Assembly (NCBI GenBank): GCA_033286805.1
Contig: GCA_033286805.1_4727.1
Length of the DNA: 64,000 nt
Direction: 5' to 3' (one strand)
Source of the DNA: a phage
The notes under the pieces are model-generated. The model searched no databases and was not told the origin of the DNA. It saw nothing but the letters and a program-made list of their open reading frames with translations. A program made the translations under genes and the position numbers. Positions 1,335 to 49,974 of the stretch are shown one piece after another; within the stretch, counting starts at the first letter, position 1; the number at the start of each line of letters is the position of its first letter.

Positions 1335-1384
1335 TGTAAACCTCATTAATCATTGTCCGTATGATAGCCCAAAGTTGTACGGTA

Positions 1385-1936: not shown

Positions 1937-1990
1937 GCGTGTGTCCTTGATAGTATGAAATTTCCAATACAACTTAACCGAGGACGTCGA

Positions 1991-3331: not shown

Positions 3332-3333
3332 TT

Positions 3334-3960: not shown

Positions 3961-3966
3961 CATATT

Positions 3967-3998
3967 CCCTCCTCCTTCCCTGTTGGGTTGGAGGAGGG
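3967..3998. terminator. CCTCC/GGAGG palindromic hairpin (H1)
   Basis: ccctcctcc-tt-ccc-tgtt-ggg-tt-ggaggaggg, then TTATGCCGTCA; between convergent genes 3334-3960(+) and 4071-4772(-); A13 tract at 4013-4025. Confidence 0.65.
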
Positions 3999-4070
3999 TT
4001 ATGCCGTCAAGCAAAAAAAAAAAAATGATAGTCACAGGCTCTCCAATGAAGGAGAGCCGTGACCGTCAGT

Positions 4071-18080: not shown

Positions 18081-18371
18081 TTAACTCCCTCTGTGGTGCG
18101 AAAACAAAACATCTAACTGTTCCCGTTGTTCTTTTAAGCATGCAGGAAGCTGGTCTTCCCGTACCGTTCCGATTTCCAACGTGATGTACCAACGTTGTTC
18201 TGAGGCCTGCCATTGAAAACTGCTCTGTAACCGCAGGATGTTAGGATCACGTACCTTGTTTGCACTGTAACGGTTGAACCAATCCAGGTATTCTGCTTTC
18301 CCTTCCTCGTCGGCAACGTAACGCTGCACGCTGTTCTTCCCTTTGTTCTCGTATCCCGTTGCACGTATCAT
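18081..18371 (-). CDS. hypothetical protein
   Basis: Start set at ATG 18371 overlapping upstream stop (ATGA coupling). Confidence 0.45.
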   Translation of the reverse strand: MIRATGYENKGKNSVQRYVADEEGKAEYLDWFNRYSANKVRDPNILRLQSSFQWQASEQRWYITLEIGTVREDQLPACLKEQREQLDVLFSHHRGS

Positions 18372-19150
18372 GCGAACGTTTCTCCTGTAATGTGTTGTGG
18401 GCGTTGTAGCATGGTAACATCCCATTGTACGATCCGGCTCCGGCTTACCAGCATCATGACGGATTCATCATCAAGCCCTGGTTGCGCAACCGGCAACCAA
18501 CGTTCGTTAAGCACCTTCGCTTCAACGCGTTTCTTGCGGGGATTGTAACGCACCTCGCTGACCCAAGCGAATCCAAGCGGATGCACAACCCGTGGATAAT
18601 ACATGCGAAGCAATTGATGCATTTGATCCATTGCCTCCAAGCTCGCATCCGCCAGGTAAGGTTTCACCATGGCAAGCTTTTTGGTGTAATACGTTCCAAC
18701 GGTATGGTTCGCCCACCCAGGAAGCGCGTGATGGAATCCTACCTGTAATTGTGTATTGCCGTTCACCTTCAGCCAACCGTATTGTCCCGCCGCACGTCCC
18801 TCGTCAGTATCGATCCATGTAAGTATATCGATGAACGCACGATCGGCGATCTCGATGCGTTCCACCCGTTCATCCAACGCACCACGTACCACGAATCCGC
18901 TCGCGCTCAGCCGTGCAGGATGCTGGCTACGATGTGCGTACCAATTCTTGTTGCCGGTAAGCAGGTAAGGATACAAGTGCGCACCACGCCAAACAACCTT
19001 TCCGTTCGTCCCGTCGACGCAACGTACACGCATCCCAGCCTGACCGCTGCTGTAGCATGCTACCCTCACGCATTCGTTTTGAACATCGCTCGGTAACGCC
19101 AGGTATTCATCTCCAGTAAACATGGTATCAAAAATCAATGCTTCTTTCAT
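18368..19150 (-). CDS. hypothetical protein (260 aa)
   Basis: First ORF downstream of promoter box 19234-19257. Confidence 0.55.
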   Translation of the reverse strand: MKEALIFDTMFTGDEYLALPSDVQNECVRVACYSSGQAGMRVRCVDGTNGKVVWRGAHLYPYLLTGNKNWYAHRSQHPARLSASGFVVRGALDERVERIEIADRAFIDILTWIDTDEGRAAGQYGWLKVNGNTQLQVGFHHALPGWANHTVGTYYTKKLAMVKPYLADASLEAMDQMHQLLRMYYPRVVHPLGFAWVSEVRYNPRKKRVEAKVLNERWLPVAQPGLDDESVMMLVSRSRIVQWDVTMLQRPQHITGETFA

Positions 19151-20011: not shown

Positions 20012-20905
20012 TTAATCAGCGACGTTATAACCGAATACTGCTTTACCGTAGGTGTGAGTACCGTTAGCTAACGACAGCACCAGCACATGGTTGTACGTAG
20101 CGTTAACGCCCTTGTCAGTAGACTCGGTGGTAGCACCGTTATAGACAAAGGTAGCCGTTTGCAGATTGGCTTTCAGTTCATTGATGATATCATCACTTAC
20201 GCCGGTCTGCTCTTTGATCAGGGTGGTCAGGTTACCTGCTAAGCTTGCATCGATATTTACTTCGTTGCCAGTAATAGCTTGTAAACCTGGAGCGTAAGTA
20301 CTGAAGTCTAACGGATAGGTTAACAGACGTGCTGACGTTTTGGTACCATCGCCTTCATCAACGTAGGTTAAGTTACCCAGGTTGGTAACCTTGATGATGT
20401 TAGCCAGATCCAGCGTGGTGTTATAAACTTTAACTTGAACAGAGCCATACCACGCCAACGAATCTTCTTTGGCTTCCAGGGTGATCGTCTGGATACCTGA
20501 CTGATCAAAGGTAACCTGAGTAGCTAACGTTTCGGCTTTGATGTCTTTCGTTTTATCCAGGAACTTCTCACCGGAAGGCGTGATCATACCGTAGCGTTGA
20601 GCTACAAGGTCAACCACATCACCGATGGTGGTGTTCGCCTCAACGTTAACACGTACAGCGATCTTCTGGAACCACTTAGCCAGATCCAGACGATGGTAGG
20701 TGACATCGCGGTTATTGAAGTAAGGGGTACCTTCACCAGGACTAAGTGTTAAAGTTGCTTCTGGAGCAGAAGGATTCTTTTCTTTAAGGACGTATTTAAG
20801 GTCGGTGTATTTAAAGTTGGCACCAGTGTCGGCGTTGAGCTGGTTAATCTCATCAACGATAAGTTGCCAAGGTGTTTTTAAAGTAAGCGATACTTGAGCT
20901 GTCAT
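20012..20905 (-). CDS. abundant virion protein, paralog family member A
   Basis: Strong codon bias; shares YxNRxDL / LAWYGSV-type blocks with 21048, 31966, 33788, 34650 genes; followed by hairpin 19964-19995. Confidence 0.7.
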   Translation of the reverse strand: MTAQVSLTLKTPWQLIVDEINQLNADTGANFKYTDLKYVLKEKNPSAPEATLTLSPGEGTPYFNNRDVTYHRLDLAKWFQKIAVRVNVEANTTIGDVVDLVAQRYGMITPSGEKFLDKTKDIKAETLATQVTFDQSGIQTITLEAKEDSLAWYGSVQVKVYNTTLDLANIIKVTNLGNLTYVDEGDGTKTSARLLTYPLDFSTYAPGLQAITGNEVNIDASLAGNLTTLIKEQTGVSDDIINELKANLQTATFVYNGATTESTDKGVNATYNHVLVLSLANGTHTYGKAVFGYNVAD

Positions 20906-21047
20906 TTTCTACCTCTATGGTTGTTACATCACTCTCAAAAGATGTAAGTGTTTACAGAAATAAGTATATTTTATATTAAATGTGAATAATATGGAGAACG
21001 ACTCCGAATCTCCTTTTCGACCATCAAAAATCAGAGGACACACAATC

Positions 21048-21590
21048 ATGGCCTTAGACTTTAACAAAGCAGCGAAATCCCTTCTGCTTGATCTTATCAA
21101 CACCAAAGCAACCCGTGCACTGGCCGAACAAGAACTGCAGTTCGGTACCCCGGGGGCATCTTCCGAACATGAAAAGAACACCGTTATTCAGCTGGACGCT
21201 GCGCCTGAAGCAGAAAACCTGCAGGGTAGTCAGCAGTTCTACTACGATCGTCTGGCTCTGTCCGAAGTTTTCGCTGATGTAACCGGCGACGTTACTTTCG
21301 AACTGCCGCACGGTACCGACAGCATCCAGGCTTCTGAACTGGTAAGCAAGCTGGTCACCAAATTCGGCCTGGCTTCCCTGAACGGTGAAATCAAAGAAGA
21401 AACCTTCCAGCTGTCTGCTGGTACTGTTGGTCAGGTAACTCTGAGTGCGATCGATAATGGTCTGGTATATACCGGCACTCTGCAGGTTGCTCTGACCTAT
21501 GCAGCAGCACCGAAAGACCAACTGGCAACTGTTCTGGCGGATAACGTAGCTGATGGCTTCGTGAAACCGACCGTTAGCGTTGTTGGCTAA
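21048..21590 (+). CDS. abundant virion protein, paralog family member B
   Basis: ATG 21048 with GAGGA SD; strong codon bias; blocks QQFYYDRLAL ... LVYTGTLQV. Confidence 0.7.
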   Translation: MALDFNKAAKSLLLDLINTKATRALAEQELQFGTPGASSEHEKNTVIQLDAAPEAENLQGSQQFYYDRLALSEVFADVTGDVTFELPHGTDSIQASELVSKLVTKFGLASLNGEIKEETFQLSAGTVGQVTLSAIDNGLVYTGTLQVALTYAAAPKDQLATVLADNVADGFVKPTVSVVG

Positions 21591-21602
21591 TACCAATAGC
21601 TT

Positions 21603-21643
21603 AGAGCAATAGTATGGGTTTTGTACAGCTCGGCTATTGCTCT
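21603..21643 (+). terminator. hairpin with 10-bp perfect stem and 21-nt loop
   Basis: agagcaatag ... ctattgctct; 13 nt after stop of 21048-21590. Confidence 0.35.
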
Positions 21644-21792
21644 TCTACAATTTGGTTGTAACAATCTGCGTGGTTGCACGCTTATCTTTCTCATTGAGCG
21701 CTTCGTGTGAAGCGTGGTGTTGAAAGGGTTGTGGATCTCCTCAAGCGGCCAGGGACCCAGACCAACCTGAATAAACACGAACACCTGTTAAG

Positions 21793-21825
21793 CCCCTCCT
21801 CATCCGTTATTGGGTGAGGAGGGGT
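21793..21825. terminator. CCTCC/GGAGG-type hairpin (H6, divergent)
   Basis: cccctcctca-tcc-gttat-tgg-gtgaggagggg; between 21048-21590(+) and endolysin 21888-22523(-). Confidence 0.55.
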
Positions 21826-21887
21826 CTTATACGTCTTTATGCGTTCCGTTCGTTCTGGAGCGTTTTAGGACGGTTTACTGCAAGGTT

Positions 21888-22523
21888 TTATTCAACACTG
21901 AAACCGTTCAAACAGATAGCTTCGTAACGCTTACGTTCACGACGTTTACGCGCCTGCCAACCGTAAATGAACTTCTCGTCTTTCTCACGACGTTCAGCTA
22001 ATTCGATGTAATAGGTGCTCTGCATGTCCAGCATCGCATCGATGAGATAATCCTTACCAGTTGCGCCACGCTTAGCGATGTAGGCATCAAGAGCTGCCAG
22101 TGATTTGGGACCCATTGCACCATCAGCATCAATATCTTTCCAGTAAGTTTGACGGTTGTTCATGACGTTCAGGTAACGCTGAAGGTTCTTAACCGCAACC
22201 GTTTTACCTGCATTGATACCCAGGTCAAAGAGACGGTCAGCCAAGAACACAGAACGTTTCATGACTTCGTCAAGCTTCATCTTATCCCAGAAGTGGGTCT
22301 TGTAGATAAAGAACGCCATTTCCGTGGTAAGGTTACGCATGTTACCGTCCCACCCGAATTTCGTTTTCAGCGTGGTTTTGTACTGATCCGCAAGCGCTTT
22401 CGTAATGCCGTGGTTTGTACATTTTCCGCTGTCGTCTGGGTCATCAACATACCCGCCTTCAACATCGGTTTTGTCGCGAATGATGAATTCGCAGGTAAAA
22501 TCTTTTTCAGTAATCTTAGCCAT
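21888..22523 (-). CDS. endolysin, GH108 N-acetylmuramidase-like with C-terminal peptidoglycan-binding region
   Basis: N-terminal motif EGGYVDDPDDSGKCTNHGIT matches GH108 signature EGGYvndp.DpGG.TkyGIT; GAGGAG SD 6 nt before ATG 22523. Confidence 0.8.
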   Translation of the reverse strand: MAKITEKDFTCEFIIRDKTDVEGGYVDDPDDSGKCTNHGITKALADQYKTTLKTKFGWDGNMRNLTTEMAFFIYKTHFWDKMKLDEVMKRSVFLADRLFDLGINAGKTVAVKNLQRYLNVMNNRQTYWKDIDADGAMGPKSLAALDAYIAKRGATGKDYLIDAMLDMQSTYYIELAERREKDEKFIYGWQARKRRERKRYEAICLNGFSVE

Positions 22524-22649
22524 TAGAACTCCTCGTTGGAATAACGATTTAGAGGAACAGGGAAGCCCTAGAACACGATAAACGATTTAATCCAGGCAAA
22601 CCCCAGACTAAACTTTTCTAAGCGTTAGAACGCGTTCTAGAGCGCAATA

Positions 22650-24698
22650 TCAAATACCTTTGGTTCCCTTCACGTGATGTGCGATTTCTTCAACCATTGC
22701 ACGCAGGGCACGAAGCTGTTGGTCGTGTTCGTACCAACCGCCTAACAGAACCCCGCTATACACCATGGTGTCAAGACTTAACAGTCCTTTATCTGATACG
22801 TTGATCATTTCAGGGAACTGTTCTTGAACACGCTGTGCGATAACACCGATCTTCTCGACATCAGGATCGTAGTTGTGACGGAAACGGGCAAGCCCGCTGC
22901 GCGCCATTTCACGTAAACGTTCACTGAGAGATTCCGGATGATCTTTCAGATAACGAATGTCGTGTTTACTGCGTTCATCCGAGCGGATGTATGCGTTAGG
23001 AACATCGATGTTACTGTTGAAGTACAGCGCACTACCACCACCTGCAGAGTTCCCCCAATAGAAGCGTGTGATCTCACCGCCGCCATTCTCCGTGATGATG
23101 ACATGTTTACCTAAACGCGTACCACCATTACCATCAACGAAGACCAGTTTGTTTCCGCTGTAAGAACCCCAGAACAAGCGTGTATCGATGATGTGTGTTG
23201 CGGCGAGACGGGCGTTACGTGGTGTAGAATACACGGTGTTAACATCTTGCTGTGCATGCGCATCGGAAGCGATCCCGTAGTTCTGTACGTTACCCAACCC
23301 TACCTGCGCTTTTGTAACAGCATGAGGGTTATCCCGACGGTTGGCGTGAGCGTTAACCAGATCACCCGCTAATTTCTGAATTGCCCAGTTGGTAGACTGT
23401 GGTGTCATGTAACGGTTCGTTGCAGAACCACCTTGCGCTTCAGCTTGGTTAGCGGTTGGGTAGTTCTCAACACTTCCTAACCCTACTTGTGCTTTAGACA
23501 CTTGGTGTGGGTTATTCTTATCGGCGATGTGTGCATTAAGCGGAACTAACGCAAAGGTCTCAATGGACGCTTTGGTTGTGTTCGGTGCCATTAATCGGTT
23601 AGCTGCAACACCAGCACGCGCTTCTTCTTCAGAAGCCATTGGGTAGTCTTGCACATTCCCTAACCCAACCTGTGCTTTGGTCACCCTGTGTGGGTTGTTA
23701 TAATCGGCTTTATGCGCATTAAGCGGAATCAATGCGAACTGTTCAATCGATGCAACGGTACGTAGCGGCGTCATGAAACGGTTGTTCGCTGTTCCGGCTT
23801 TCGCCTCATCATCCGAAGCGGTCGGGAAGTTATCAACGTTCCCAAGGTTAACCTGTGCTTTGGTGACACTGTGTGGGTTATCCCGACGGTTAGCATGCGC
23901 GTCGACTAGATCGCCCGCCAGTTTAGCAATCGCCCAGCCAACCGTTTGTGCGGTCATGTAACGGTCAGGTGCGGTACCGGCTTCTGCCTCCGCCTTGTTT
24001 GCGGTAGGATAGTTCTGTACGTTACCTAGTCCGACTTGGGCTTTTGTTACTTCGTGTGGGTTATCGGTACGGTTAGCGTGAGCGTAATGCAGATCGGTTA
24101 GATCTTTATCCGCCGCTTGCATGTCTTTGCGTAGCTGATCGATTGCCGCCCAGAGACGGTTATCGGACGCAGCATCACCGATGAGTATTGCGGCTTTTAA
24201 CGAATAGATCGCTAAGCAAAGATGTTCGGTACCGTAAATAGCACTAACGTGGTGGATGTGTGGTTCAGGCGGATAGAGTTCCGGTTTGTTCTTGATGTCA
24301 TCCCAGTTGATCGGACGATCGTCAAGTTTGAGTTCTTCGATAGCCTGATATAACGCGTCAATAAGACTTACGTAAACACCACCGATGATACGATAGTCGT
24401 TAATTAACGTCCCCTCGATATCATCGTTGATAATGGCGATGGCTGCACAGATTTCTTTACCCGCGTAAAGCGTAGCGTCCTGATACAAGAAGATAGGTTT
24501 GTAGTCCACGCCTCGCACCAGTGTCTTACCGGTAAGCTTTTCAGTGATGACCAGACTTTCGGTGAAGAACGGTCCGCCATCAAGGGCGTAACATTTATTC
24601 TCGGTTCGTGGAACGGTATGTTCTTCGCCAACGATGTGGTTGCTGGCGAGTGTACCGGTCCAGTCCTCGGGGTACTTCAGGGTAATTGGTGTCGACAT
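22650..24698 (-). CDS. tail fibre with C-terminal S74-type intramolecular chaperone domain
   Basis: Five ~57-aa repeats (H.ANRRDNPH.VTKAQVGLGNV.NY...EA..G...NRYMTP); C-terminal SDERSKHDI motif (SDxRxK) typical of autoproteolytic fibre chaperone domains. Confidence 0.85.
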   Translation of the reverse strand: MSTPITLKYPEDWTGTLASNHIVGEEHTVPRTENKCYALDGGPFFTESLVITEKLTGKTLVRGVDYKPIFLYQDATLYAGKEICAAIAIINDDIEGTLINDYRIIGGVYVSLIDALYQAIEELKLDDRPINWDDIKNKPELYPPEPHIHHVSAIYGTEHLCLAIYSLKAAILIGDAASDNRLWAAIDQLRKDMQAADKDLTDLHYAHANRTDNPHEVTKAQVGLGNVQNYPTANKAEAEAGTAPDRYMTAQTVGWAIAKLAGDLVDAHANRRDNPHSVTKAQVNLGNVDNFPTASDDEAKAGTANNRFMTPLRTVASIEQFALIPLNAHKADYNNPHRVTKAQVGLGNVQDYPMASEEEARAGVAANRLMAPNTTKASIETFALVPLNAHIADKNNPHQVSKAQVGLGSVENYPTANQAEAQGGSATNRYMTPQSTNWAIQKLAGDLVNAHANRRDNPHAVTKAQVGLGNVQNYGIASDAHAQQDVNTVYSTPRNARLAATHIIDTRLFWGSYSGNKLVFVDGNGGTRLGKHVIITENGGGEITRFYWGNSAGGGSALYFNSNIDVPNAYIRSDERSKHDIRYLKDHPESLSERLREMARSGLARFRHNYDPDVEKIGVIAQRVQEQFPEMINVSDKGLLSLDTMVYSGVLLGGWYEHDQQLRALRAMVEEIAHHVKGTKGI
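23214..24086 (-). repeat. coding tandem repeats (5 x ~57 aa, NPH-VTKAQVGLGNV core) in fibre gene
   Basis: Repeat units read from translation of 22650-24698. Confidence 0.8.
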
Positions 24699-24711
24699 AA
24701 CCTGGAGGTCC

Positions 24712-27306
24712 TTATAACGTGACTGTACCTAATTTGGTTGTCTTATTGAGATTAATGACAGAGATCTGGGTATCGCTGGTCGTAATCGTTCCGATATTAA
24801 CGCGCTGTCCTTTATCATCTTCTTGCTTGTAGATGGTTAACTCCAGCTCTAACTGGTCGCCATTAGGAACAACGGAAACGTACCATGTTTTATTACCTGG
24901 TGAACTATTATAGTCTTTTAGGTTATAATGGCCTTTAGGTAAGGTCATGACCTTACCGGCAAACAAGCAAGTGATGTCTTCGTTGATGTAGATATCGTAA
25001 CCGGAAGCAGCAACGACCGTAGAAACCATGTAGACATGTTTGACGGTACCTGCGAGGTATTCGGCTACGCTTGGTCCGTATGCTCTGAATACCTGTCCAC
25101 CATTGGATAAACGGTACGCTTCCCCAAGGTCGACGTACCCCAGACCCCATACCGGATGGACGTTGTAACGACGTCCGCTGCTGGCCAAATACTCATAAAG
25201 GTCATCTACCGATAACCCAACCCACGCACCACTGGCGTTCTTAGCACCACGGAATTGAAAATCGTTTGCGTTTCCTGGAGTAGCAACGCGCACGGACATC
25301 GCCCCGGCGATTAACCAACCATCAGCGCATTTACGATACCCTAATGGTCCCCACGCCCCCAGAGTGTTGTCAATGTTATTGATTTGGTCCCGAAGCGTGT
25401 AAGTTACCGTTGTGACGACCCCCGTTACGGTAATGTTCCCTTCCCGAGCGCTGGTCGTCACTTCAGACGTCATGATAGCCGCCTTCCTGGAGACAGGATC
25501 GTACACCGATATGAACATCAAGCAGGGGGCCCCTGTGGACGCCGGAGGAACCACGATAGAGCCGCGTATAACGGAGTATCTCTCAAGCTTCGGCGACGTG
25601 TAGGTATCCCAACAAAGTTTGGCCGCTCTGTCGAGTTCTGCCTGCGTGATGCTTATCGATGCCCCCTTTAAGGCTAACGTATCAGGGTCGACCTCAACCC
25701 TGCTGCTTAATCTCCCTTCCTGTAGCCAACTGCCAGTCACTATCGTCTGGTCGTCGCTCATGTGAATTGTCGCGAAACGTTCGCTCACTGAACCGCCTAC
25801 GTGGACGCGACTGGTTGGCGGGAATCCCATCACATCGACCACGCTGTTCTTATAGCGATAACTCAAATCCCAATCAGCGGTTATTAACCGCTTTTCGAAA
25901 TTGCTCTGACCCCCTGGGATGCGGGATAAGACATAGACCTTGTTCTTCGCCGTGAAGCCAACGAAGCCGTGTGGGCCACAGGACCCAACAACGCGGTCCT
26001 TGATGTTAATCCAGTTCCCCACCTCGTACGCGGATATTGGGGTGAGTTTTGCAAGTTCGTCGAAGACATTACCAGCGTAGTCACCAATGCGATACGATCG
26101 AACCATCGGCGAGGCCAGGTTATCATTCACACAGCTGGTAACCAGACCGTCCTCGCGAATGACCATGTTCCCGGTAAGGTTGGCCCCACCCCATGCCCAG
26201 AATCCGTCTTTATAATCACGGTCACGAGTTGACATCGTACAAGGGCCACGAAAGGACACCGAACCATCGGAGTTCACTTGTAATGACGGCGTTCCAGCAT
26301 TGGGACTTAATGTCCATTGCTTCGTATCCAGGTTCAAATCGACGTACCAGATCGTTGTCCCCTGGTCGGCGATATTCACGGTACTGTTAGTGTACCATGC
26401 CGTCGTGCAGTAGATTCGCGCAATGTTACCTTTTACAACAGCGTAATTTCTAATACCCGCACGAATAGGGACAAGCGTCGTTAATTGACTAGGATACGCT
26501 GTATGGTTTAACACTTCCCAGAAAAGAATATGGTCGAGGTTGGTTTTCGTCGTTCCCTCAAAAATCTTTCCACTAAACCCGGTTTCTTTGGTGAACTGTA
26601 CAGCCGCACCATTTTTAATGTCCGATAACATACAGGTATGTACATCGAGCCCGTTTTTCCCTTCATACGCCCACCAGACTAACAGGTACACTTTGTTTTT
26701 GTAGACGAACGTACTACAGCGCGCCATGCTGTCGGTAATACCCTCTACCGACCCGGTACACATGGCGGCGACATGCTTCTCTACGTTGAATGTGCCGTTA
26801 GTCAGAACGATGTAGGGCTGTGTGTTCTCGTCGTTTGCGTCCATCGCGACACCCATCATCACGCCGTGGTTATGACACCAGACCGATTGTGGGATTTTAG
26901 GTAGTGCTGTAGGCCTATACTGGCGACTGGTACCTATGGCGGTATCGAGCAGCCCTTCACCATTGTTTTTACAGATAGCGTAATACACCCCGTTTTTCAT
27001 GCTGTTGGATGCCGAGCGAAGGATGGAAACACTCCCGTCTGCTTCCTGACAGATTCCGTAGGTACGACGTTCGGTCATGGCTATCGCGCCATCAGCTGAC
27101 CCTTCGATGGCGAGAGGGAAGTAACTTTGATCGCCAATTTGTTCGATATCGGTTACGTCAATATCAATGTACTTTTCCATCTCGGTGTTGAACTCTGCGG
27201 TGCTGTACGCGCCGAGATCGCCAGCCTTTAACCCTGTTGGATTGCTTCGACTAGCGATACGCTCAGTAACGCTGGTCACCAGTTCGCTAAATTTTTTCAT
27301 TGCCAT
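24712..27306 (-). CDS. putative receptor-binding protein / tail fibre or spike (864 aa)
   Basis: Inside fibre cassette; N-terminus MAMKKFSEL...ASRSNP shares anchor motif with the two small downstream proteins. Confidence 0.6.
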   Translation of the reverse strand: MAMKKFSELVTSVTERIASRSNPTGLKAGDLGAYSTAEFNTEMEKYIDIDVTDIEQIGDQSYFPLAIEGSADGAIAMTERRTYGICQEADGSVSILRSASNSMKNGVYYAICKNNGEGLLDTAIGTSRQYRPTALPKIPQSVWCHNHGVMMGVAMDANDENTQPYIVLTNGTFNVEKHVAAMCTGSVEGITDSMARCSTFVYKNKVYLLVWWAYEGKNGLDVHTCMLSDIKNGAAVQFTKETGFSGKIFEGTTKTNLDHILFWEVLNHTAYPSQLTTLVPIRAGIRNYAVVKGNIARIYCTTAWYTNSTVNIADQGTTIWYVDLNLDTKQWTLSPNAGTPSLQVNSDGSVSFRGPCTMSTRDRDYKDGFWAWGGANLTGNMVIREDGLVTSCVNDNLASPMVRSYRIGDYAGNVFDELAKLTPISAYEVGNWINIKDRVVGSCGPHGFVGFTAKNKVYVLSRIPGGQSNFEKRLITADWDLSYRYKNSVVDVMGFPPTSRVHVGGSVSERFATIHMSDDQTIVTGSWLQEGRLSSRVEVDPDTLALKGASISITQAELDRAAKLCWDTYTSPKLERYSVIRGSIVVPPASTGAPCLMFISVYDPVSRKAAIMTSEVTTSAREGNITVTGVVTTVTYTLRDQINNIDNTLGAWGPLGYRKCADGWLIAGAMSVRVATPGNANDFQFRGAKNASGAWVGLSVDDLYEYLASSGRRYNVHPVWGLGYVDLGEAYRLSNGGQVFRAYGPSVAEYLAGTVKHVYMVSTVVAASGYDIYINEDITCLFAGKVMTLPKGHYNLKDYNSSPGNKTWYVSVVPNGDQLELELTIYKQEDDKGQRVNIGTITTSDTQISVINLNKTTKLGTVTL

Positions 27307-27318
27307 TATTCACCTCAG

Positions 27319-27804
27319 TTAAATCGGCGAATCAGGTAATTGGCCATCGACAATCTCGGTAGTGGCCACTTTACGTGTCGCAGCAAGATGTGCTGTGCCC
27401 TGAACTTTGTTCCAGGTACCGATACGCATCACGTTTTTATAGCTGCTGTTACTGTCGCTCAATGTGTAAACAAAACCGTTATCCGTGACAGCAAGATAGA
27501 TCCAACCGGTTGATGCGCTAACACCAGAAACATCCAACGTGGTCGCGGGCACCGTTCCTGTTATCGTGTTGTATTCCGCTTCACCTTGGCCGATGCTGAT
27601 CCTCCCGTTGTTGTAGCTGGCTGCTGGAATTATTTTATTTCGGCTGAAGAAAAGGAACGGAAGATAACGTTGTGTGACAAGAGGTGTAAGTTTAGGAGCC
27701 ACTTCTGTCTTGGCGTACACGTTTGTCTGCGTCGTTGTTACTGAATGAGGATTCTTCTTGGCCAGGTAGGCTCCCCATTCAGAAAGCAATGTCGATAACT
27801 TCAT
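27319..27804 (-). CDS. small tail-fibre-associated protein
   Basis: N-terminus MKLSTLLSEWGAYLAKKNPHSVTTTQ carries a single copy of the fibre repeat core. Confidence 0.5.
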   Translation of the reverse strand: MKLSTLLSEWGAYLAKKNPHSVTTTQTNVYAKTEVAPKLTPLVTQRYLPFLFFSRNKIIPAASYNNGRISIGQGEAEYNTITGTVPATTLDVSGVSASTGWIYLAVTDNGFVYTLSDSNSSYKNVMRIGTWNKVQGTAHLAATRKVATTEIVDGQLPDSPI

Positions 27805-27808
27805 ACGA

Positions 27809-28324
27809 CTACCCCATATAACGTTTTTGGCCGAGGATAAAGACCTTGTTAAGGACCACCGAGGTAATGCCTGACGCGTTGCAACTCACCTGCCCAACAC
27901 GAATCGCTGTTGATGAATCAGCCCCAGCACTACTGTTCCAACTCCAGCCGACCGACCCACCTTTCTGATGAATAAACAGATATCCGGTTTTGTTTGCCCA
28001 ATCGGAAGTAAGATTTTTGATGTCTAACGTTCCTTTCGCCAGAATATAGTCGGTACCAGCGATCATGACGGGGATTTCAGGATACGAGATTACCGTACCG
28101 CTGGCGGTAACGTTGCTGATGCGATCACTACGAATATCAGTACAATCACCGAAATACGCTACGGGGAGTATCCCCTTAGGGAGCTTTTTGCCGATTCTCG
28201 TATCGATAGTGTTTTTATCGGGTGCGTCGATTTGCGCTGCAGTGACTTGGTTAGGGTTATCCTTCCTTGCGTACCATGTCGTCATGCGAGCACCCAATTC
28301 ACTCATTTTTGTGCCCATTTTCAC
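27809..28324 (-). CDS. small tail-fibre-associated protein
   Basis: N-terminus MKMGTKMSELGARMTTWYARKDNPNQVTAAQ resembles fibre repeat core and N-termini of 24712 and 27319 genes. Confidence 0.5.
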   Translation of the reverse strand: MKMGTKMSELGARMTTWYARKDNPNQVTAAQIDAPDKNTIDTRIGKKLPKGILPVAYFGDCTDIRSDRISNVTASGTVISYPEIPVMIAGTDYILAKGTLDIKNLTSDWANKTGYLFIHQKGGSVGWSWNSSAGADSSTAIRVGQVSCNASGITSVVLNKVFILGQKRYMG

Positions 28325-28375
28325 ATCCTATCGAAAAATAAAAAGAAGGAAAGGTGGGTAGAACCCACCCATCCG

Positions 28376-30529
28376 TTATAACGTTTCGAAGTCGGTTGCT
28401 TTGATAACCGCGTTGAAGTTGGCAAGGAATTCCTTAAGCAATGCTTGGAAGACATCACGGAACGCTGTGTTCGTCTGCAAGCTGGTTAAATAATCGTTCT
28501 TAAGGTAATCGCTCAGCTTACCGATCTTCTGCATCTTCTCGCCGTCTTGGTTCTCTCCAGGTTCTTGGCTGTTGATGTTAACCCATTTGATCCCTTCGAG
28601 ATCACCATCGGCAAGGAAGTTGGCGGGTGTCTCATCGTCGTTCAGGATTTTAATCGTATCACTGGATTCAATGCCACCGTAAGCTTCCAGAAGCTGGTTG
28701 ACTGTTAGCGTGTTGGTGTTGATTGAACCATTGACACCATCAATACCGATGCCTGCACCTGTGATGGATGTCGCCGAAAGATCGATCGGTCCGGTTAACT
28801 TACCACCGTTGATCGGTAACGCACCAACTTGCTCGGCGGTGTGTGTATGGTTAGCTAACGCCGCAAACGCCACGATAGACTTATACGTCGAATACGGCGT
28901 CATATACGCTGATTGGTTGGTGTTGTCAGCCGCTTCAGTATCGGTAGCGACATTAAAGTTCTGCACGTTGCTGAGACCGACCTGCGCCTTCGTTACTTCA
29001 TGCGGATTGCTCTTATTGACAACGTGTGCTGCAAAACCATCACCAGCTAAAGCAGTGATTGCCGCTTTTGTCGCAGCCGGTGTCATATAGCGGTTGGTTG
29101 CTTCACCCGTTTGCGCCTCTTCGTCGGAAGCAACAGGATAGTTCTCAACGCTCCCCAAACCAACCTGAGATTTTGTTACTTGGTGTGGGTTTTCGGTATT
29201 CGCGATGTGACTACTGAACCCTTGACCAGCCAGTTGCTCGATTGCGTAACGAACAAGTATTGGCGTCATGTACTTGTTGTTAACTTGACCATCGATAGCT
29301 TCTTGGGTGGTGGCAACCCCGAAGTTTTGCACGCTCCCCAACCCAACCTGCGCTTTCGTAACAGCGTGGGGGTTATTGGTGTTACCGATGTGATCGGTAA
29401 CCGTTGGGGTGATTAATCCTGCGATAGCGGCTGCCGTGGTCGCAGGGGTCATGTATTTATCGTTAGCAACACCCGCAGCAGCTTCTACGTTAGATGCTAC
29501 ACCGTAGTTCAATACATTTCCTAACCCAACTTGAGCTTTGGTTACCCCGTGGGGGTTGTTCTTGTCTCCGGTATGGGTTGTCAACGTAGCGTTAACGTTA
29601 TCGATACGCGTGCTTAAGCCATCGGTGATTGCTTTGATTGCGGCTCGTACACCCACTGGTGTCGTGTACAGATTGGTGGCCGTACCGGTAATGGTTGCAT
29701 TACTATCGGCTGTACCGTAGTTCTCAACGTTTCCGAGTCCCACCTGGGCTTTCGTTACCTTGTGTGGGTTGTTATAGTTGCTGATGTGTGCAGCAGCACT
29801 ATCACCACTCAGGTTAGCGATCATCTTACGCGTCATCGCCAACGTCATGTACAGATTTTCACCGATGGTTTCCAGATCGCTCTCGGTCGCCGTTGTGAAG
29901 TTCTGAACATTCCCCAATCCAACTTGAGCCTTGGTTACCCCATGGGGGTTATCGCGACGATTCTCGTGCTGCAGCAATGCGGTCATTGCTTTATTGAACC
30001 CTTCTTCAAGCGGTTCTTTCAATGATTCGATTGCGGCCACCACATCGTCCCACGTCATTGTGTCGGTTTCGACATTATGTTGGTGGTTGATTGGTGGGAA
30101 TACGGAAGGAACGTCGGCAACCTTTTCCCAGAACGTAACGCGGGGATCGTAAAGGTTGTTGGCTAAAACGTTAAGAATTTGTTGTTGATCAAGTGTAAAC
30201 TCACCCCCCAGTGAATAGTAGTTCAGTTGCAACTGTCCACTGAATGCGGTGTCCAACAGCATGATGGAACCGTATAATTCCAGGCCGGTCAGCGCAGCCA
30301 TGGCACGGAAGGGGTGAGTGCATAAAAAGTCAACGCCTTCTTCCAGATACGCGTTTGTTTCAGGGTTGTAGATCTTTAACCCATTACGAAAATATGGCGC
30401 GTATTTAGGAACGAGAAAGTTAAATCCGGTCCCCGTGGAAGGACGGACAGTGACGAGTTCTTCTGGAACCCATGCGCCATCCAAATTCCCCTGCGGGTTA
30501 TACGGAAGGCGTTTAATTTCATCTGTCAT
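28376..30529 (-). CDS. tail fibre (717 aa) with six NPH-VTKAQVGLGNV repeats
   Basis: N-terminal domain paralogous to that of 22650-24698 (L.YP, GVD[YF], PP..H.H); six ~57-aa repeats; C-terminal ALPINGGKLTGP fibre-tip-like motif. Confidence 0.8.
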   Translation of the reverse strand: MTDEIKRLPYNPQGNLDGAWVPEELVTVRPSTGTGFNFLVPKYAPYFRNGLKIYNPETNAYLEEGVDFLCTHPFRAMAALTGLELYGSIMLLDTAFSGQLQLNYYSLGGEFTLDQQQILNVLANNLYDPRVTFWEKVADVPSVFPPINHQHNVETDTMTWDDVVAAIESLKEPLEEGFNKAMTALLQHENRRDNPHGVTKAQVGLGNVQNFTTATESDLETIGENLYMTLAMTRKMIANLSGDSAAAHISNYNNPHKVTKAQVGLGNVENYGTADSNATITGTATNLYTTPVGVRAAIKAITDGLSTRIDNVNATLTTHTGDKNNPHGVTKAQVGLGNVLNYGVASNVEAAAGVANDKYMTPATTAAAIAGLITPTVTDHIGNTNNPHAVTKAQVGLGSVQNFGVATTQEAIDGQVNNKYMTPILVRYAIEQLAGQGFSSHIANTENPHQVTKSQVGLGSVENYPVASDEEAQTGEATNRYMTPAATKAAITALAGDGFAAHVVNKSNPHEVTKAQVGLSNVQNFNVATDTEAADNTNQSAYMTPYSTYKSIVAFAALANHTHTAEQVGALPINGGKLTGPIDLSATSITGAGIGIDGVNGSINTNTLTVNQLLEAYGGIESSDTIKILNDDETPANFLADGDLEGIKWVNINSQEPGENQDGEKMQKIGKLSDYLKNDYLTSLQTNTAFRDVFQALLKEFLANFNAVIKATDFETL
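28834..29971 (-). repeat. coding tandem repeats (6 x ~57 aa, NPH-VTKAQVGLGNV core) in fibre gene
   Basis: Repeat units read from translation of 28376-30529. Confidence 0.8.
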
Positions 30530-30550
30530 GATGCGCCCTTTACAAGTTGT

Positions 30551-30580
30551 TAGTAAGTATGGGATACCCTGGGGTATCCT
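30551..30580 (-). promoter_or_regulatory. TAGTAA + GGATACC palindrome element, copy 2
   Basis: gtTAGTAAgtatGGGATACCctggGGTATCC; ~32 nt upstream of ATG of fibre gene 28376-30529(-). Confidence 0.45.
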
Positions 30581-30633
30581 GTGTTAACAGCGGTAAAATA
30601 TTACTGTAACTATAAAATAAGGGGGCCTCTCCC

Positions 30634-31914
30634 ATGTATACATTGGTAAAAACTTACGGATTACCCGTAGGTTCTGGCACGGCCTGGACAGCGCTTGAGG
30701 CGGGTGAAAGTGTCCTGAGTACGTTGTTCTCAACGTATCAAAAACTCAAGATCCAGGTCCATGAAAGCTATGCTGACCAGCAACAAGTTATTGATCTGTA
30801 CGCGTTCCAATCCGAGCTTCAAAACAGCAGTGATACGCTCAATGCGTGGCTGAAGGCGAAATCGGACGCACATACTAACCTCCGTGGACAGCCAGGCGAG
30901 CTGTCGATTAAAACCCACAAGCTTTATTGTCACGACGTTATTACAGTAGGCTTTCTCCCTAAAGTCGGTAATAGCGGCTATCATCCGAGCAACGCGATCC
31001 CTGAGTCGGAACGCACTGATATCCTGTTGACGAAAGCGAATACGAACTACGAAAATATCGGTAAGCATTGCTTGTTTACCGTAGGTGGTTATGTTCATCC
31101 TCACGTTTACGGTAAAGACGTCGGTGTCTATATCCAGGGCGGGTTCAAGACGGCACAGCGTAGCCAAGAAAACGATATCGGCATGATTGATTTTAGCCGT
31201 ATCGGGAGTTTGGAAATCCATGCCATCACAGAAGAGATGATTGCTGATTCCACGAAGCTCTTGCCGTATAAGGACGAGATGTACTTGCGGTTACCGCGCA
31301 AGGTCGCCGAAGATGAAACCGTCGCGCTGGTGTTCGGGGGATATTTACATCTTCTTGACGATTGTTACACGATCGTTAGTGACACGACAGCAAAAATAAA
31401 CTGCATTAACATGTTTCTTTATGAAAGATACTTCCGTTCCCGCAAATACCTTGATCTAACGTCTCTTGGTATTCTGTTGAACGAAGAAGACCCGCAGTCC
31501 GATATTGTTGCCAATCGTTTATTGTCCGATAAAGCATTAAAAGCGTGGGTGACGCATCCTTGCAGTTTCTGGGTGTATATCAAAGCAACATCGATTCAGG
31601 TTACGCAAGAACCTTTACCACGAAGTGGTGTACCAGGACAATATTTCTTAGGTAAGAAACCGGAAGGACTGATTCGAGCCGATCTTGGTGAGTTACCGGC
31701 TTACGTGCAGACCTATGAAAAACCGTTATGGGTACTTCACTCGCGCTGGGGACTTCGTAAGAACATGTTGTTTGAAAACACATTGTACAAGCACACCCGC
31801 GTTAAGCGGCTTAACGATACGCCTTATCTTCACCAGGTCTGGTTGGAAACGCACGCGACGTTGCAGACAGTACACAAGCTCGAATTGATCGATTCCAGTC
31901 AGAAAAACAAATAA
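30634..31914 (+). CDS. hypothetical protein (426 aa)
   Basis: ATG 30634 with AAGGGGG SD; plus-strand island between fibre cassette and paralog genes; ends before hairpin 31925-31956. Confidence 0.6.
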   Translation: MYTLVKTYGLPVGSGTAWTALEAGESVLSTLFSTYQKLKIQVHESYADQQQVIDLYAFQSELQNSSDTLNAWLKAKSDAHTNLRGQPGELSIKTHKLYCHDVITVGFLPKVGNSGYHPSNAIPESERTDILLTKANTNYENIGKHCLFTVGGYVHPHVYGKDVGVYIQGGFKTAQRSQENDIGMIDFSRIGSLEIHAITEEMIADSTKLLPYKDEMYLRLPRKVAEDETVALVFGGYLHLLDDCYTIVSDTTAKINCINMFLYERYFRSRKYLDLTSLGILLNEEDPQSDIVANRLLSDKALKAWVTHPCSFWVYIKATSIQVTQEPLPRSGVPGQYFLGKKPEGLIRADLGELPAYVQTYEKPLWVLHSRWGLRKNMLFENTLYKHTRVKRLNDTPYLHQVWLETHATLQTVHKLELIDSSQKNK

Positions 31915-31924
31915 CCAAACATAA

Positions 31925-31956
31925 CCCTCCTCCAACCCGTAAGGGAAGGAGGAGGG
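31925..31956. terminator. CCTCC/GGAGG palindromic hairpin (H7)
   Basis: ccctcctcc-aa-ccc-gtaa-ggg-aa-ggaggaggg then AATATGCTGTTA; convergent junction 30634-31914(+)/31966-32871(-). Confidence 0.75.
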
Positions 31957-31965
31957 AATATGCTG

Positions 31966-32871
31966 TTATGCTACATATAAGGTTAGATAACCATCGATGA
32001 GCGTATTCATCACACTGAGTTGGAGTACGACAGCTTTACTAACATCCGTACGTACACCAAACGGTAGTGTTTTGAATTGCTCTGGATCGGCTATTACTTG
32101 CGCATTCTGCAAGTTGAGCGGTCCAGGCATTGCTGACAATACCCAGCGATCGTTGACCATAAGGCCGTCGATCTCTTCAGAGAGGCCCAATTGCAGTGCG
32201 TTCATTTCTGCGATTAGTGCCTCCGATTGCGCATCACCTGAGGTTAACGTATACCCATCGGTAAGTGATGCCAGAACACCAGCAGATACGAACCAGTTGT
32301 ACGAAACAATAGCGCCTGGGAGTTTACTGCTATCTCGATCGATGATATAATTCAACCCAGCCAACATATTGTTGCGAACGAGGTTGTTGAGGTCATTACG
32401 TCCTGAGGTCAACTCAACAAGTAACTGACCAACCCATACTTGGTTACCGGGTTTAGGTGTTATCACAACCTGTATCGGTGACTTGGACTTATCCAGATCC
32501 GCGTCGACAATCTCGGTTTTGTTGAGAAGGATACCGTACGTCGATGCTAAGACAGGTAGGATCTCAGAGACCTTGGTTAATGCATCTAAGGTTTCGATCT
32601 CGATGGGCCAGTGGTGCTGTCCGCCAGACCAAGTACCCAGTTTACCAAGATCGATGCGGTTATAATAGATGTCGACAGAGTTCACCAACCCTGAACCCGG
32701 TTGGGGATGCACGGTTAACTTGCTGTTACGCTTGTACCCTGTGCTTTCAGAAGCCTCACCGATAACCAGTTTATCCAGCGTTACGCCTCGAGCATCGAAA
32801 TCGCTATGCTTTCGAATCAGCCGAAAGAGGATTTCTTTCGATTCTAACCCCAGGATTTCACTGTACTCCAT
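31966..32871 (-). CDS. virion protein, paralog family member C
   Basis: Blocks VDIYYNRIDLGKL ... STYGILL ... QVWVGQLLV shared with other family members. Confidence 0.65.
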   Translation of the reverse strand: MEYSEILGLESKEILFRLIRKHSDFDARGVTLDKLVIGEASESTGYKRNSKLTVHPQPGSGLVNSVDIYYNRIDLGKLGTWSGGQHHWPIEIETLDALTKVSEILPVLASTYGILLNKTEIVDADLDKSKSPIQVVITPKPGNQVWVGQLLVELTSGRNDLNNLVRNNMLAGLNYIIDRDSSKLPGAIVSYNWFVSAGVLASLTDGYTLTSGDAQSEALIAEMNALQLGLSEEIDGLMVNDRWVLSAMPGPLNLQNAQVIADPEQFKTLPFGVRTDVSKAVVLQLSVMNTLIDGYLTLYVA

Positions 32872-32886
32872 TTAACACCCCTTAGG

Positions 32887-33771
32887 TTACGGTAGGATTT
32901 CTGCGCCCGTCGGGCCTGCCTTACGAGCTTCCAACGCACCAAGGTCGTATTTCAGCGTCAGCGTATCGTTGGTGGTATAAAGGTTGTGGTAAGTCGAAAT
33001 CAGATCGGTAACCTGCGCGCCGACGATTTCGTTCATGTCGAAGGCCGAACCTTGACCATCATCGGCACGAACGATTTTATCGCCAGCAGAGACCATCCCA
33101 ATTTCAGAAATAACCGCGTACTCTTCACCACCTTCGGTGAGTTTAGCCACATTGAGATATTCGTTAATATCCCATGGCGTCCAAACCAAAGAGACTTTAC
33201 AGCTGTAGTCGTAGTACTCTCCGGTCGCTACCAGAATTCCGGTTGTTGGGATATCCGGTCGGGTGGGGTTGAGGTTAGCGTCGGTTGGGTGCCATTCGAT
33301 GGTCTGAGCGACGCCGTCGACGTATTTGGTATAACGCATGGAGCGGACAACGTTATCGAAATCGATGCGACGACCGTAATAACAGATATACTTTTTACCG
33401 CTTTCCAATGTCTCAATACGACGTAACCCAAATTTAGCGCGTTCGTCTGTGGTCAAATCGTTACCAACTTCACGCATCACGAACGGCTTGATCTTCCACG
33501 GTGAAAGATCGCTTGCTTCGTGAGCGATCGGCATCGAGGAAGGGATACCGTTAGCGTTGCGGATGAATTCATGACCTTGGTTGCCGATACAGAAGTAACG
33601 TACAGCAGGATTACCCTCGGGGTAAACCTTTGATTGAATCTGAAGCTTTTCATTCAAGGTGCTATGTTCTTCCCATGCGTGAGGAAGACCGAGCGTAAGG
33701 TTAGTTTGTACTTGACCGCCGATAATCGTACGGACGATACGATCGGTAGCACGGATTTGTGTAGAAGCCAT
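32887..33771 (-). CDS. hypothetical structural protein (294 aa)
   Basis: ORF embedded between paralog family genes. Confidence 0.6.
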   Translation of the reverse strand: MASTQIRATDRIVRTIIGGQVQTNLTLGLPHAWEEHSTLNEKLQIQSKVYPEGNPAVRYFCIGNQGHEFIRNANGIPSSMPIAHEASDLSPWKIKPFVMREVGNDLTTDERAKFGLRRIETLESGKKYICYYGRRIDFDNVVRSMRYTKYVDGVAQTIEWHPTDANLNPTRPDIPTTGILVATGEYYDYSCKVSLVWTPWDINEYLNVAKLTEGGEEYAVISEIGMVSAGDKIVRADDGQGSAFDMNEIVGAQVTDLISTYHNLYTTNDTLTLKYDLGALEARKAGPTGAEILP

Positions 33772-33787
33772 GTCTTTTCCTATTTAA

Positions 33788-34639
33788 TCAGTTATATTGC
33801 ATCAACAGGATACCGCCGTAGTTCGTGCAGTAATCTTGGCTAAGCGTAACGATAACAGCGTTAGCGAACGCAGGGTTAACAGGATAACCCTGTGCGATAA
33901 GTTCTGTTGTTTTACCGGTTGCAAGCACGGTGGCTCCGTAAAGGTTGTTTTCGTCTTCACGGCCGTTATAAACCCATGGGGTTGGCGCAACGTTGTTGAA
34001 TAAGCTAACCAATGCGCTTAAATTACCACCAACTTTTAACCCGGCGAGATCGGAACGGATAGCTGTACAGTCTATAGCGTAACTGTAGACCAATGCCTGG
34101 ATACGATTTGCGGTGTAGTACGGGAAATTGAGACCGGTCATCACCGAAGTCTTCATCATCCCCGCAATATCGTGGGCACTATCGAGGAGATAGAACGTAA
34201 CACTTCCCGTCCAAGCCAATCCGGTTGTTTTCAACTCTACGGTGTGAGGGAACGGATATTCATCACCTCGTACAATTGGAGAATCGACGCAGCTATCCTG
34301 ATCGATAACGATTCCGTACGTTGATTGAATCAGAGGGATAAGATCATGCGTTGTTTTAACCCCAGCATCGATAGCAAGCTTCGGTTCCATTCCCAAGAAG
34401 AAGTCTTGAATAGGGATACGATCGTACCACACGTAGCTGCTTTCACGGTATTGTGCTGGCGTTACTGTTGCCGAAGGCGATACTTTCGCGCGCGTGTTCC
34501 GTTTATACGCGTGGTTTCCGTTTTCAGCAACATCCGTGATATCAAGTGCATCGAAGTTAAAGTCGAAGTCTGGATTGGCTGCCTGAATAAGTTCAGCGAC
34601 CAGTACTTTAGGACTTTTGTTTAACAATTTCTGACTCAT
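33788..34639 (-). CDS. virion protein, paralog family member D
   Basis: Blocks SYVWYDRIPIQDF ... STYGIVI ... LAWTGSVTF. Confidence 0.65.
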   Translation of the reverse strand: MSQKLLNKSPKVLVAELIQAANPDFDFNFDALDITDVAENGNHAYKRNTRAKVSPSATVTPAQYRESSYVWYDRIPIQDFFLGMEPKLAIDAGVKTTHDLIPLIQSTYGIVIDQDSCVDSPIVRGDEYPFPHTVELKTTGLAWTGSVTFYLLDSAHDIAGMMKTSVMTGLNFPYYTANRIQALVYSYAIDCTAIRSDLAGLKVGGNLSALVSLFNNVAPTPWVYNGREDENNLYGATVLATGKTTELIAQGYPVNPAFANAVIVTLSQDYCTNYGGILLMQYN

Positions 34640-34649
34640 TGTTTATTCC

Positions 34650-35585
34650 TTAGCCTTGTTCTTCTGGAGAACGACCCTGGAGGCTTGCGGTATGTCCGTC
34701 GACGTTGTAATAGAAAATCAATGGACCGCCGACGGCAGTACAGTAGTTTTCATCCAGACCGATCTCGATACCGTATTGGTAACCCGCTCGTGCTGGAATA
34801 CGTCCGCCTAACTCGCCGTTGAAAGCCACTTTAGCATTATACAGGTTATACGGTGCGGCGTTGTCGTCTAATACCCAACGATCGGTAGTCATTTCAGCCA
34901 GAAGATCGGCAACCACCACATCGCTAATAACGGTACCTGTTACCAGCGAAGCCAGCAGTTCACCGTAATCAGAAGTATCACGACTGTAACTGTAAATCTC
35001 GCCGCTAGCGCGTACGCCTTGACCGAAGAACTTAAGGCCGTCCAGCTCCTTGATCGCGATAATATCGTCAAGATTCGGCACACGCGATTTCATCAAGATA
35101 CGAACGCTCCCCGTCCAAGCCAGGCAGTTAGATGCGACACGAAGCAATTGTCCGTTAACGGTATCCCAGTTAAGTTCGTCGTTGACGATTTCTTCCGCGG
35201 TAAGACCAAGACCGAAACGTTCTTTGATGATAGGCCAGATATCACGCATCTTGGCGGCGTCTGGCGCATCGATAAGAATAGGAGCTACGTTACGCAGATA
35301 CGCACCGATGTTAATACGATCGTAATACAGTGTCGTCGAACCTTCGTAATCGTCTAACTCAGTAAGCTTAGCGGTTGCTGTCGCCGTAATCTGGGTGTCG
35401 CGCTCATAGGCGCTTTGGTTGGTGGTTGGTGTTCCTAAAACCAATAATTCAGGGGTTAGGATATGCTCTCCGTTCTGAGGTGGGTTATCGTGGTTGATAA
35501 GACCATACACGAGATCGGATGAGGGTAAAGAGACGTCGACCGGGTAAAGTTCGGTGTCGTCAATAGTTGTTACCGTATCACTCAC
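34650..35585 (-). CDS. virion protein, paralog family member E
   Basis: Blocks TLYYDRINIGAYL ... ERFGLGL ... LAWTGSVRI. Confidence 0.65.
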   Translation of the reverse strand: MSDTVTTIDDTELYPVDVSLPSSDLVYGLINHDNPPQNGEHILTPELLVLGTPTTNQSAYERDTQITATATAKLTELDDYEGSTTLYYDRINIGAYLRNVAPILIDAPDAAKMRDIWPIIKERFGLGLTAEEIVNDELNWDTVNGQLLRVASNCLAWTGSVRILMKSRVPNLDDIIAIKELDGLKFFGQGVRASGEIYSYSRDTSDYGELLASLVTGTVISDVVVADLLAEMTTDRWVLDDNAAPYNLYNAKVAFNGELGGRIPARAGYQYGIEIGLDENYCTAVGGPLIFYYNVDGHTASLQGRSPEEQG

Positions 35586-47503: not shown

Positions 47504-47602
47504 CTGACTTATGTATCACGGTGCCGGATGAATGTCCGGTGCAATGAAACCATCCGCAACGTTGTCGTCAAGAATATCATCCAACGAAGCAGCTACGGTA
47601 GT

Positions 47603-49825: not shown

Positions 49826-49974
49826 TGAAAGTATCCTTTACAGAATTAACTTATATAAGTCGGTCGATAGACCATAGCGTACACGCGTGCATGCGCCACT
49901 ATAGTATCAGTAAACACTTACCGTTGTTTAGGCTGTGATACAACACTAAAAATGCCGCATAACTTTTCCCTACG

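Follow-up and report, generated by a model that had tools for sequence, protein, structure and literature searches.

The subject of this analysis is a group of five related genes, here called A to E, carried by a 64,000-nucleotide stretch of phage DNA (contig GCA_033286805.1_4727.1 of assembly GCA_033286805.1), referred to below as the window. Gene A (20012-20905, minus strand) encodes 297 residues, and B (21048-21590, plus strand) encodes 180 residues and is transcribed away from A across an intergenic region of 142 bp (20906-21047). The other three lie together on the minus strand: C (31966-32871; 301 residues), D (33788-34639; 283 residues) and E (34650-35585; 311 residues, with a GTG start). 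Between C and D stands a gene that is not a member of the group (32887-33771, minus strand) and that encodes a DUF7208 baseplate spoke protein. All five open reading frames (ORFs) listed in the initial annotation are present on the strands given there. The window has about 95% nucleotide identity to Escherichia phage Goslar and the same gene order throughout, and the taxonomy record places Goslarvirus in Chimalliviridae. The orthologues of A to E are Goslar gp22, gp23, gp31, gp33 and gp34 (89, 94, 99, 98 and 98% amino acid identity, respectively), which share with them order, orientation and domain layout, including the truncation of gp23 and B; the spoke gene corresponds to Goslar gp32 and the A/B intergenic region is also conserved in Goslar. 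B starts where its Goslar orthologue is annotated to start, at an ATG (21048) that has AGAGGA as its ribosome-binding site. That A to E belong to the virion protein family DUF7941 ("paralog family B") and come from a Goslar-like chimallivirus is essentially certain.

One family under two names

In BLASTP comparisons among A to E, identities were 22-26% and scores 38-75 bits, the B/D pair alone not being significant by itself. All five proteins match the Pfam profile PF25613 (DUF7941; 276 positions), with 177.8 bits for A, 75.0 for B, 190.9 for C, 162.9 for D and 214.7 for E (E-values from 9e-21 to 2e-63), far above the curated gathering threshold of 27 bits, and all five match PHROG 1037/2935, annotated as "virion structural protein", B belonging to phrog_2935. 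When the 200 ORFs of the window were searched with a hidden Markov model (HMM) built from the five sequences, no further member appeared, the best remaining ORF having E=1.1. Taken together, the BLASTP, Pfam, PHROG and HMM results indicate that the similarity noticed at first is significant and exclude a chance resemblance, so that, as judged from their sequences, A to E are true, distant paralogs. The ordered motif blocks described for them hold in part: aligned blocks occur in all five proteins, but the patterns as strictly written fit only four, two and three of the five, and it is the loosened forms [YWT][YW]xR[IL], [YF]G[ILM] and [AV][WY]xG[STQ][VL] that align throughout.

The statement that no known family could be matched has to be withdrawn, since A to E correspond to Pfam DUF7941, to PHROG 1037/2935 and to a family already described in phage SPN3US. 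There, "paralog family B" comprises gp83, gp138-154, gp160 and gp237 (Thomas 2016, Ali 2017, Scheuch 2023). The PF25613 threshold is passed by SPN3US gp83, gp138-145, gp148, gp151, gp154, gp155 and gp160, and the best SPN3US match of A is gp141 (tblastn to 117921-118832; 25% identity, E=2e-6); therefore paralog family B and DUF7941 are the same family. Six SPN3US members that were assigned by the authors' PSI-BLAST fall below Pfam significance. The family was also named in a preprint on Goslar, which counts 10 members in that phage, five of them having orthologues in the window (bioRxiv 10.64898/2026.04.21.720040), and which terms the family new without citing the SPN3US work. The family is thus already known, from Pfam, from the SPN3US proteomics papers (2016-2023), from the phiKZ structure and from the Goslar preprint.

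The family occurs in genomes of Chimalliviridae. A tblastn search matched 120 phage records, from phages of Pseudomonas, Erwinia, Salmonella, Cronobacter, Serratia and Xanthomonas; the records listed all have sizes of 210-306 kb. A large homologue search returned 77 A-type and 6 E-type clusters, counts that are no census because only the best 8,000 candidates by shared words were scored. SPN3US resembles the window in having an abundant protein of about 32 kDa (gp141, like A) together with an abundant short one of about 18.5 kDa (gp160, like B), in having a DUF7941 gene next to the DUF7208 spoke gene and in having the family cluster next to the endolysin gene. It differs in that its approximately 20 members form one long array, as opposed to 10 members in Goslar and five in the window, in that they have only about 25% identity to the window proteins, and in that experiments with this phage assigned the family to the head. 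In phiKZ, gp127 (PDB 9xqd) caps a band whose protein is homologous to the DUF7208 protein of the window; that phage differs in having about three family members, the solved structure shows a single gp127 in each baseplate lobe, and no counterpart of the abundant short form B was identified there in this comparison.

It had also been suggested that the five recall decoration or inner-body proteins of large phages. With respect to the inner body, the relevant family is PF12699 (phiKZ gp93-97, Goslar gp53-58, SPN3US gp53/54), whose members are likewise paralogs specific to chimalliviruses, very abundant and missing from maps obtained by cryo-electron microscopy (cryo-EM). However, they are encoded in a separate operon, are cleaved by the prohead protease and were shown to be injected, whereas SPN3US family B is reported to be uncleaved. 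None of the five window proteins matched the PF12699 profile at E<=0.1, and this identity was rejected. As to placement in the head, the suggestion is backed by the SPN3US data and contradicted by the baseplate placement in phiKZ and Goslar, as weighed below.

Abundance, codon usage and divergence of A and B

The proposal that A to E are virion proteins is supported through their Goslar orthologues, all five of which were detected by mass spectrometry in purified virions. Label-free quantification gave, per Goslar virion, about 2,144 copies of gp23 (B), 577 of gp22 (A), 112 of gp33 (D), 27 of gp34 (E) and 8.5 of gp31 (C) (bioRxiv 10.64898/2026.04.21.720040). High abundance is therefore right for A and above all for B, but it does not extend to C and E, which are low-copy proteins, or to D, of medium copy number. 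In SPN3US, gp141 and gp160 were estimated at more than 300 copies each.

Codon usage in the window, measured with the major capsid gene (47603-49825, minus strand) as reference, follows the order B>A>E>D>C. B has an effective number of codons (Nc) of 33.7 versus 30.1 for the capsid gene and a codon adaptation index on the capsid scale of 0.61, rank 2 of 57, the next gene having 0.45. The bias of A is moderate (Nc 44.9, rank 6-8 of 57), and the remaining three are unremarkable, with ranks from 11 to 53 of 57; C shows no bias (Nc 58.9). Thus, of the two genes said to be as biased as the major structural gene, B is and A is not, and for both the codon bias agrees with the Goslar copy numbers. The capsid gene is also overlapped on the opposite strand by a 766-residue ORF (47528-49828, plus strand), a shadow ORF of this gene with its strong codon bias.

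The divergent arrangement of A and B across exactly 142 bp was correctly described, and the region is indeed rich in A+T (68%, versus 53% in the whole window). It contains the 12-mer GTAAGTGTTTAC, which occurs exactly twice in the window: at 20944-20955 (plus strand), 93-104 nt upstream of B, and at 49910-49921 (minus strand), 85-96 nt upstream of the capsid gene, each copy being followed after 5-9 nt by TATA. The two genes preceded by it are the two most codon-biased ones. A copy with one mismatch (30646-30657, minus strand) lies upstream of the gene for a 717-residue fibre protein, and with up to two mismatches there are 14 matches in the window against 5.8±2.5 expected. Phages of this group transcribe with their own RNA polymerases. 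Because exact copies precede B and the capsid gene, each with a TATA after it, GTAAGTGTTTAC is a candidate for a strong late-promoter element used by a phage RNA polymerase. A scan of the A/B region for sigma-70 promoters gave three sites against 3.1 expected, with no enrichment, and no k-mer of 7 or more bases was common to at least three of the 10 upstream regions compared.

Sequence change is faster in the abundant subunits A and B than in the genes around them. In comparison with Goslar, the ratio of nonsynonymous to synonymous substitution rates (dN/dS) is 0.34 for A and 0.30 for B, and only 0.01-0.09 in the capsid gene and in nine genes of the neighbourhood; 11% of the residues of A and 6% of those of B differ, versus 0.4-2% for the neighbouring genes. 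The substitutions in A are clustered at residues 42-49, 119-136 and 205-220. The same is seen against a second Goslar-like genome (L006), where identity is 52% for B and 80% for A, as against 88-97% for the fibre and endolysin genes beside them. The gene adjoining A (18368-19150, minus strand; 260 residues, Goslar gp21) is also fast-evolving, with 41.5% identity to its counterpart in L006.

Other variable genes lie between B and C. A mosaic module (24712-28324, minus strand), inside a region otherwise 96-99% identical to Goslar, encodes an 864-residue protein with 52% identity to Goslar gp26, a 161-residue protein with 84% identity (synonymous rate, dS, 1.3) and a 171-residue protein with 91% identity, and from its sequence it looks like an exchanged receptor-binding cassette. 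On either side of it are genes for fibre-like proteins of 682 residues (22650-24698, minus strand) and 717 residues (28376-30529, minus strand), in whose translations about five and about seven copies, respectively, of the repeat NPHxVTKAQVGLGNVxN[YF] can be read; in Goslar, the 682-residue protein is annotated with a Peptidase_S74 domain. At its start, the window (1-4025) corresponds, with 98% identity, to positions 233280-237304 of the Goslar record, which are its last 4 kb; the source genome or contig is therefore circularly permuted with respect to the deposited Goslar sequence.

Domain architecture and probable self-assembly

A, C, D and E span positions from about 2 to 275 of the 276 of PF25613 (4-275 in the case of A) and consist of an N-terminal domain, a linker and a C-terminal domain. 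B spans positions 4-174, and so has the N-terminal domain and the linker without the C-terminal domain. Such a short form is natural, being found also in Goslar gp23 and in SPN3US gp160 and gp83. The conserved blocks lie in the N-terminal globular domain; the linker after it is conserved too, and by itself it is unstructured.

The fold was assessed for A alone, with an AlphaFold2 monomer model built on an alignment of 26 sequences. The model has a mean predicted local distance difference test score (pLDDT) of 85 and comprises an N-terminal α/β domain (residues ~10-160), a linker of low confidence (161-190) and a C-terminal domain (190-297). Searched against the PDB with Foldseek, it matched the N-terminal domain of phiKZ gp127 (9xqd; E=1.3e-7, probability 1.00, template modelling score normalised to the target 0.65), and there was no other match with E<0.07. 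Similarly, the five-sequence profile matches phiKZ gp127 over its full length (E=7.6e-16). A single-sequence search of the PDB with E returned nothing, phiKZ gp127 being reached by A and by the five-sequence profile only.

Residues 161-200 of A, which comprise the linker and the first part of the C-terminal domain, have the lowest pLDDT of the model (54-69) and yet are the most conserved (entropy 0-0.24 among 57 orthologues). Such a combination is to be expected of a region that becomes ordered when it binds a partner. Purified Goslar gp22 was seen by negative stain to form long filaments and bundles of hundreds of nm, and AlphaFold 3 predicts dimers arranged head to tail, with the linker and C-terminal domain docked on the next N-terminal domain (bioRxiv 10.64898/2026.04.21.720040). 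The most likely mechanism, in part backed by these published experiments, is that the linker of one subunit, with the C-terminal domain where there is one, would dock on the N-terminal domain of its neighbour, so that the subunits would be joined into head-to-tail polymers.

The N-terminal module also occurs fused to other domains. Goslar gp86, gp92 and gp161 carry it together with carbohydrate-binding, glycoside hydrolase or leucine-rich repeat domains (bioRxiv 10.64898/2026.04.21.720040). SPN3US gp155 (725 residues; L003:18170-20347) has an N-terminal DUF7941 and a T4 Gp38-type tail-fibre adhesin domain (PF05268, E=7e-18). In the Klebsiella phage PhiKp24, likewise placed in Chimalliviridae, two adjacent "bifunctional tail proteins" of 679 and 689 residues (L004:6940-11064) start with about 150 residues of DUF7941, which suggests that the module is the attachment domain for some of the branched depolymerase fibres of that phage.

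Location of the family in the particle

One body of information on location comes from SPN3US, in which tailless heads of a tail-tube amber mutant were purified through two caesium chloride (CsCl) gradients, step and then equilibrium, and protein amounts were compared as normalised ratios of heads to wild-type virions. The ratio was 1.44 for gp141, 1.23 for gp160, 1.06-1.67 for gp138-154, 1.20 for gp83, 0.89 for gp155 and 1.39 for the capsid protein; for the DUF7208 spoke protein gp84 it was 0.056, and for the sheath and the gp131-like fibres 0.004-0.03. Two further SPN3US head-only preparations agree with the retention of the family. Since family members are retained in tailless heads while spoke and fibres are lost, the bulk of the SPN3US family is independent of tail and baseplate. 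The genes for gp83 and gp84 are adjacent (L005:4919-6326) and their products part in tailless particles, gp83 remaining with the head and gp84 with the tail.

The Goslar preprint reached another conclusion. It proposes a "DUF7941 fiber cloud" on the peripheral baseplate (bioRxiv 10.64898/2026.04.21.720040), with all DUF7941 proteins on about six sites there, forming heterogeneous filaments of up to about 3 µm that capture hosts. Several observations agree with this. In the phiKZ atlas, each star lobe of the outer peripheral baseplate has a single gp127, which terminates the gp139 band (9xqd) and was positioned by docking a prediction into a 4.4-Å map; a fitted gp126 likewise lies where the gp139 spoke ends on the outside, and gp127 is the protein to which Foldseek matches A. 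The product of 32887-33771, which scores 325 bits with Pfam DUF7208 and has phiKZ gp139 and SPN3US gp84 as counterparts, matches 11lx of Goslar (E=5.6e-202) and phiKZ gp139 in 9xpg/9xqd (E=5.9e-43), and it is this spoke gene that C, D and E flank in the window. Filament formation by gp22 in vitro, the fusion of host-recognition domains to other members and the prediction of the PhiKp24 fusions as tail fibres would fit as well. However, all SPN3US members tested, with the exception of gp237, were as abundant relative to capsid protein in tailless heads as they were in complete virions, while the spoke gp84 and the gp131-like fibres were depleted 18- to 200-fold; this was seen in three independent head preparations. 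The preprint itself found no DUF7941 density in its Goslar baseplate map. A model confined to the baseplate has no explanation for the retention in SPN3US heads, and we regard it as quite unlikely.

A and B might also form filaments in the infected cell that sediment together with the particles without being true virion components. Goslar gp22 does form filaments and bundles hundreds of nm long by itself, and the Goslar preparation also held PhuZ filaments and chimallin fragments. Against this, the ratio of the family to capsid protein is constant between CsCl-purified SPN3US virions and DNA-filled heads. Polymers made only of protein are expected at a much lower CsCl density than DNA-filled heads, and phiKZ gp127 was seen in place in a virion map. 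Such free polymers are a very improbable source of the signal.

Another possibility is that the capsid encloses A and B, which would belong to its internal protein mass or to the "antler" complexes under the vertices and might be ejected into the host. The head association of the SPN3US homologues in tailless particles would be accounted for, as would the lack of ordered density in Goslar cryo-EM despite more than 2,500 copies. In addition, SPN3US proheads deficient in the protease already contain gp141 and gp160; relative to capsid protein, their amounts are 23-69% of those in the wild type, much as for the internal proteins gp53 and gp54; these prohead samples contained free tails too, and interior and exterior are not separable from them. 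In the SPN3US papers, gp141 and gp160 are discussed as possible constituents of the internal "antler" densities, and gp160 bears the labels "Head ejection?" and "antler". On the other hand, an interior location is difficult to square with an N-terminal module that elsewhere carries adhesin, depolymerase and carbohydrate-binding domains, and gp155, which has the adhesin, is one of the proteins that stay with the head. Moreover, most packaged ejection proteins are cleaved by the prohead protease, which leaves the SPN3US members intact; one member is visible outside the phiKZ baseplate, and the five window genes sit in a module of tail-fibre, baseplate and endolysin genes, outside the inner-body operon. 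An interior location thus seems unlikely.

We favour a reading in which the polymers are outside the particle, most likely as flexible filaments that would help the phage to find and hold its host. Most of the polymer would consist of A and the truncated B, whose production in very large amounts would be driven by the control region between the two divergent genes. Specialised roles, probably those of anchors, adaptors or ends, would fall to the low-copy subunits C, D and E, encoded around the spoke gene; the copy numbers of C (about 8) and E (about 27) are compatible with 6- to 12-fold baseplate sites. The bulk would be anchored at the head or neck and a few copies would be placed at each spoke tip. 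A position facing the host is suggested by the adhesin, glycosidase or depolymerase domains that the N-terminal module carries elsewhere and by the rapid, patchwise divergence of A and B, and the strongest single argument is that the adhesin-fused gp155 is itself head-associated in SPN3US. To this reading, exterior head-to-tail polymers of A and B mostly on the head or neck with few copies at the spoke tips, we give an even chance. That the "baseplate fiber cloud" is wrong as to anchoring, the bulk A/B polymer being on the head or neck or inside the head and low-copy members (C, D or E) at the spokes, is a tentative conclusion, held at slightly below even.

It must be taken into account that several points weigh against this placement. 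The Goslar models of capsid, neck and inner baseplate hold no DUF7941 protein, no map puts the family on the head, and the sole structural localisation of any member, that of phiKZ gp127, is at the peripheral baseplate. The head-association data all come from SPN3US, a phage of another genus with 20 members, and none from Goslar. Moreover, external filaments of about 60 MDa (2,144 x 19.1 kDa plus 577 x 32.5 kDa) could be expected to be visible as "hair", which is unreported on particles, and the presence of gp141 and gp160 in SPN3US proheads, like that of internal proteins, would fit an interior location too.

Flexible external appendages that are non-essential and raise the frequency of host encounters include Hoc and the whiskers of T4, the head fibres of phi29 and the head filament of phiCbK. 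In the branched receptor-binding systems of PhiKp24, CBA120 and G7C, N-terminal docking domains are combined with variable C-terminal binding or enzymatic domains. By analogy, DUF7941 filaments may work like these accessory host-capture fibres and branched systems. No relationship to either was found in fold, by Foldseek of the A model, nor by sequence, and unlike trimeric coiled fibres the DUF7941 proteins would polymerise head to tail from thousands of small subunits.

The abundance of A and B was predicted from sequence alone and confirmed by the Goslar proteomics, but no new kind of system is added by the finding. What emerges is that two literatures have described one family under two names and reached opposite conclusions on its location, the head in SPN3US and the baseplate in phiKZ and Goslar. 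This conflict is the useful new point, as the Goslar preprint does not address the SPN3US data, and it concerns proteins present in thousands of copies per particle in phages that are studied for their nucleus-like compartment and for therapy. If the bulk of A and B is indeed on the capsid, nucleus-forming jumbo phages would carry a fast-evolving, self-polymerising coat or filament system of about 60 MDa that has gone unseen by cryo-EM.

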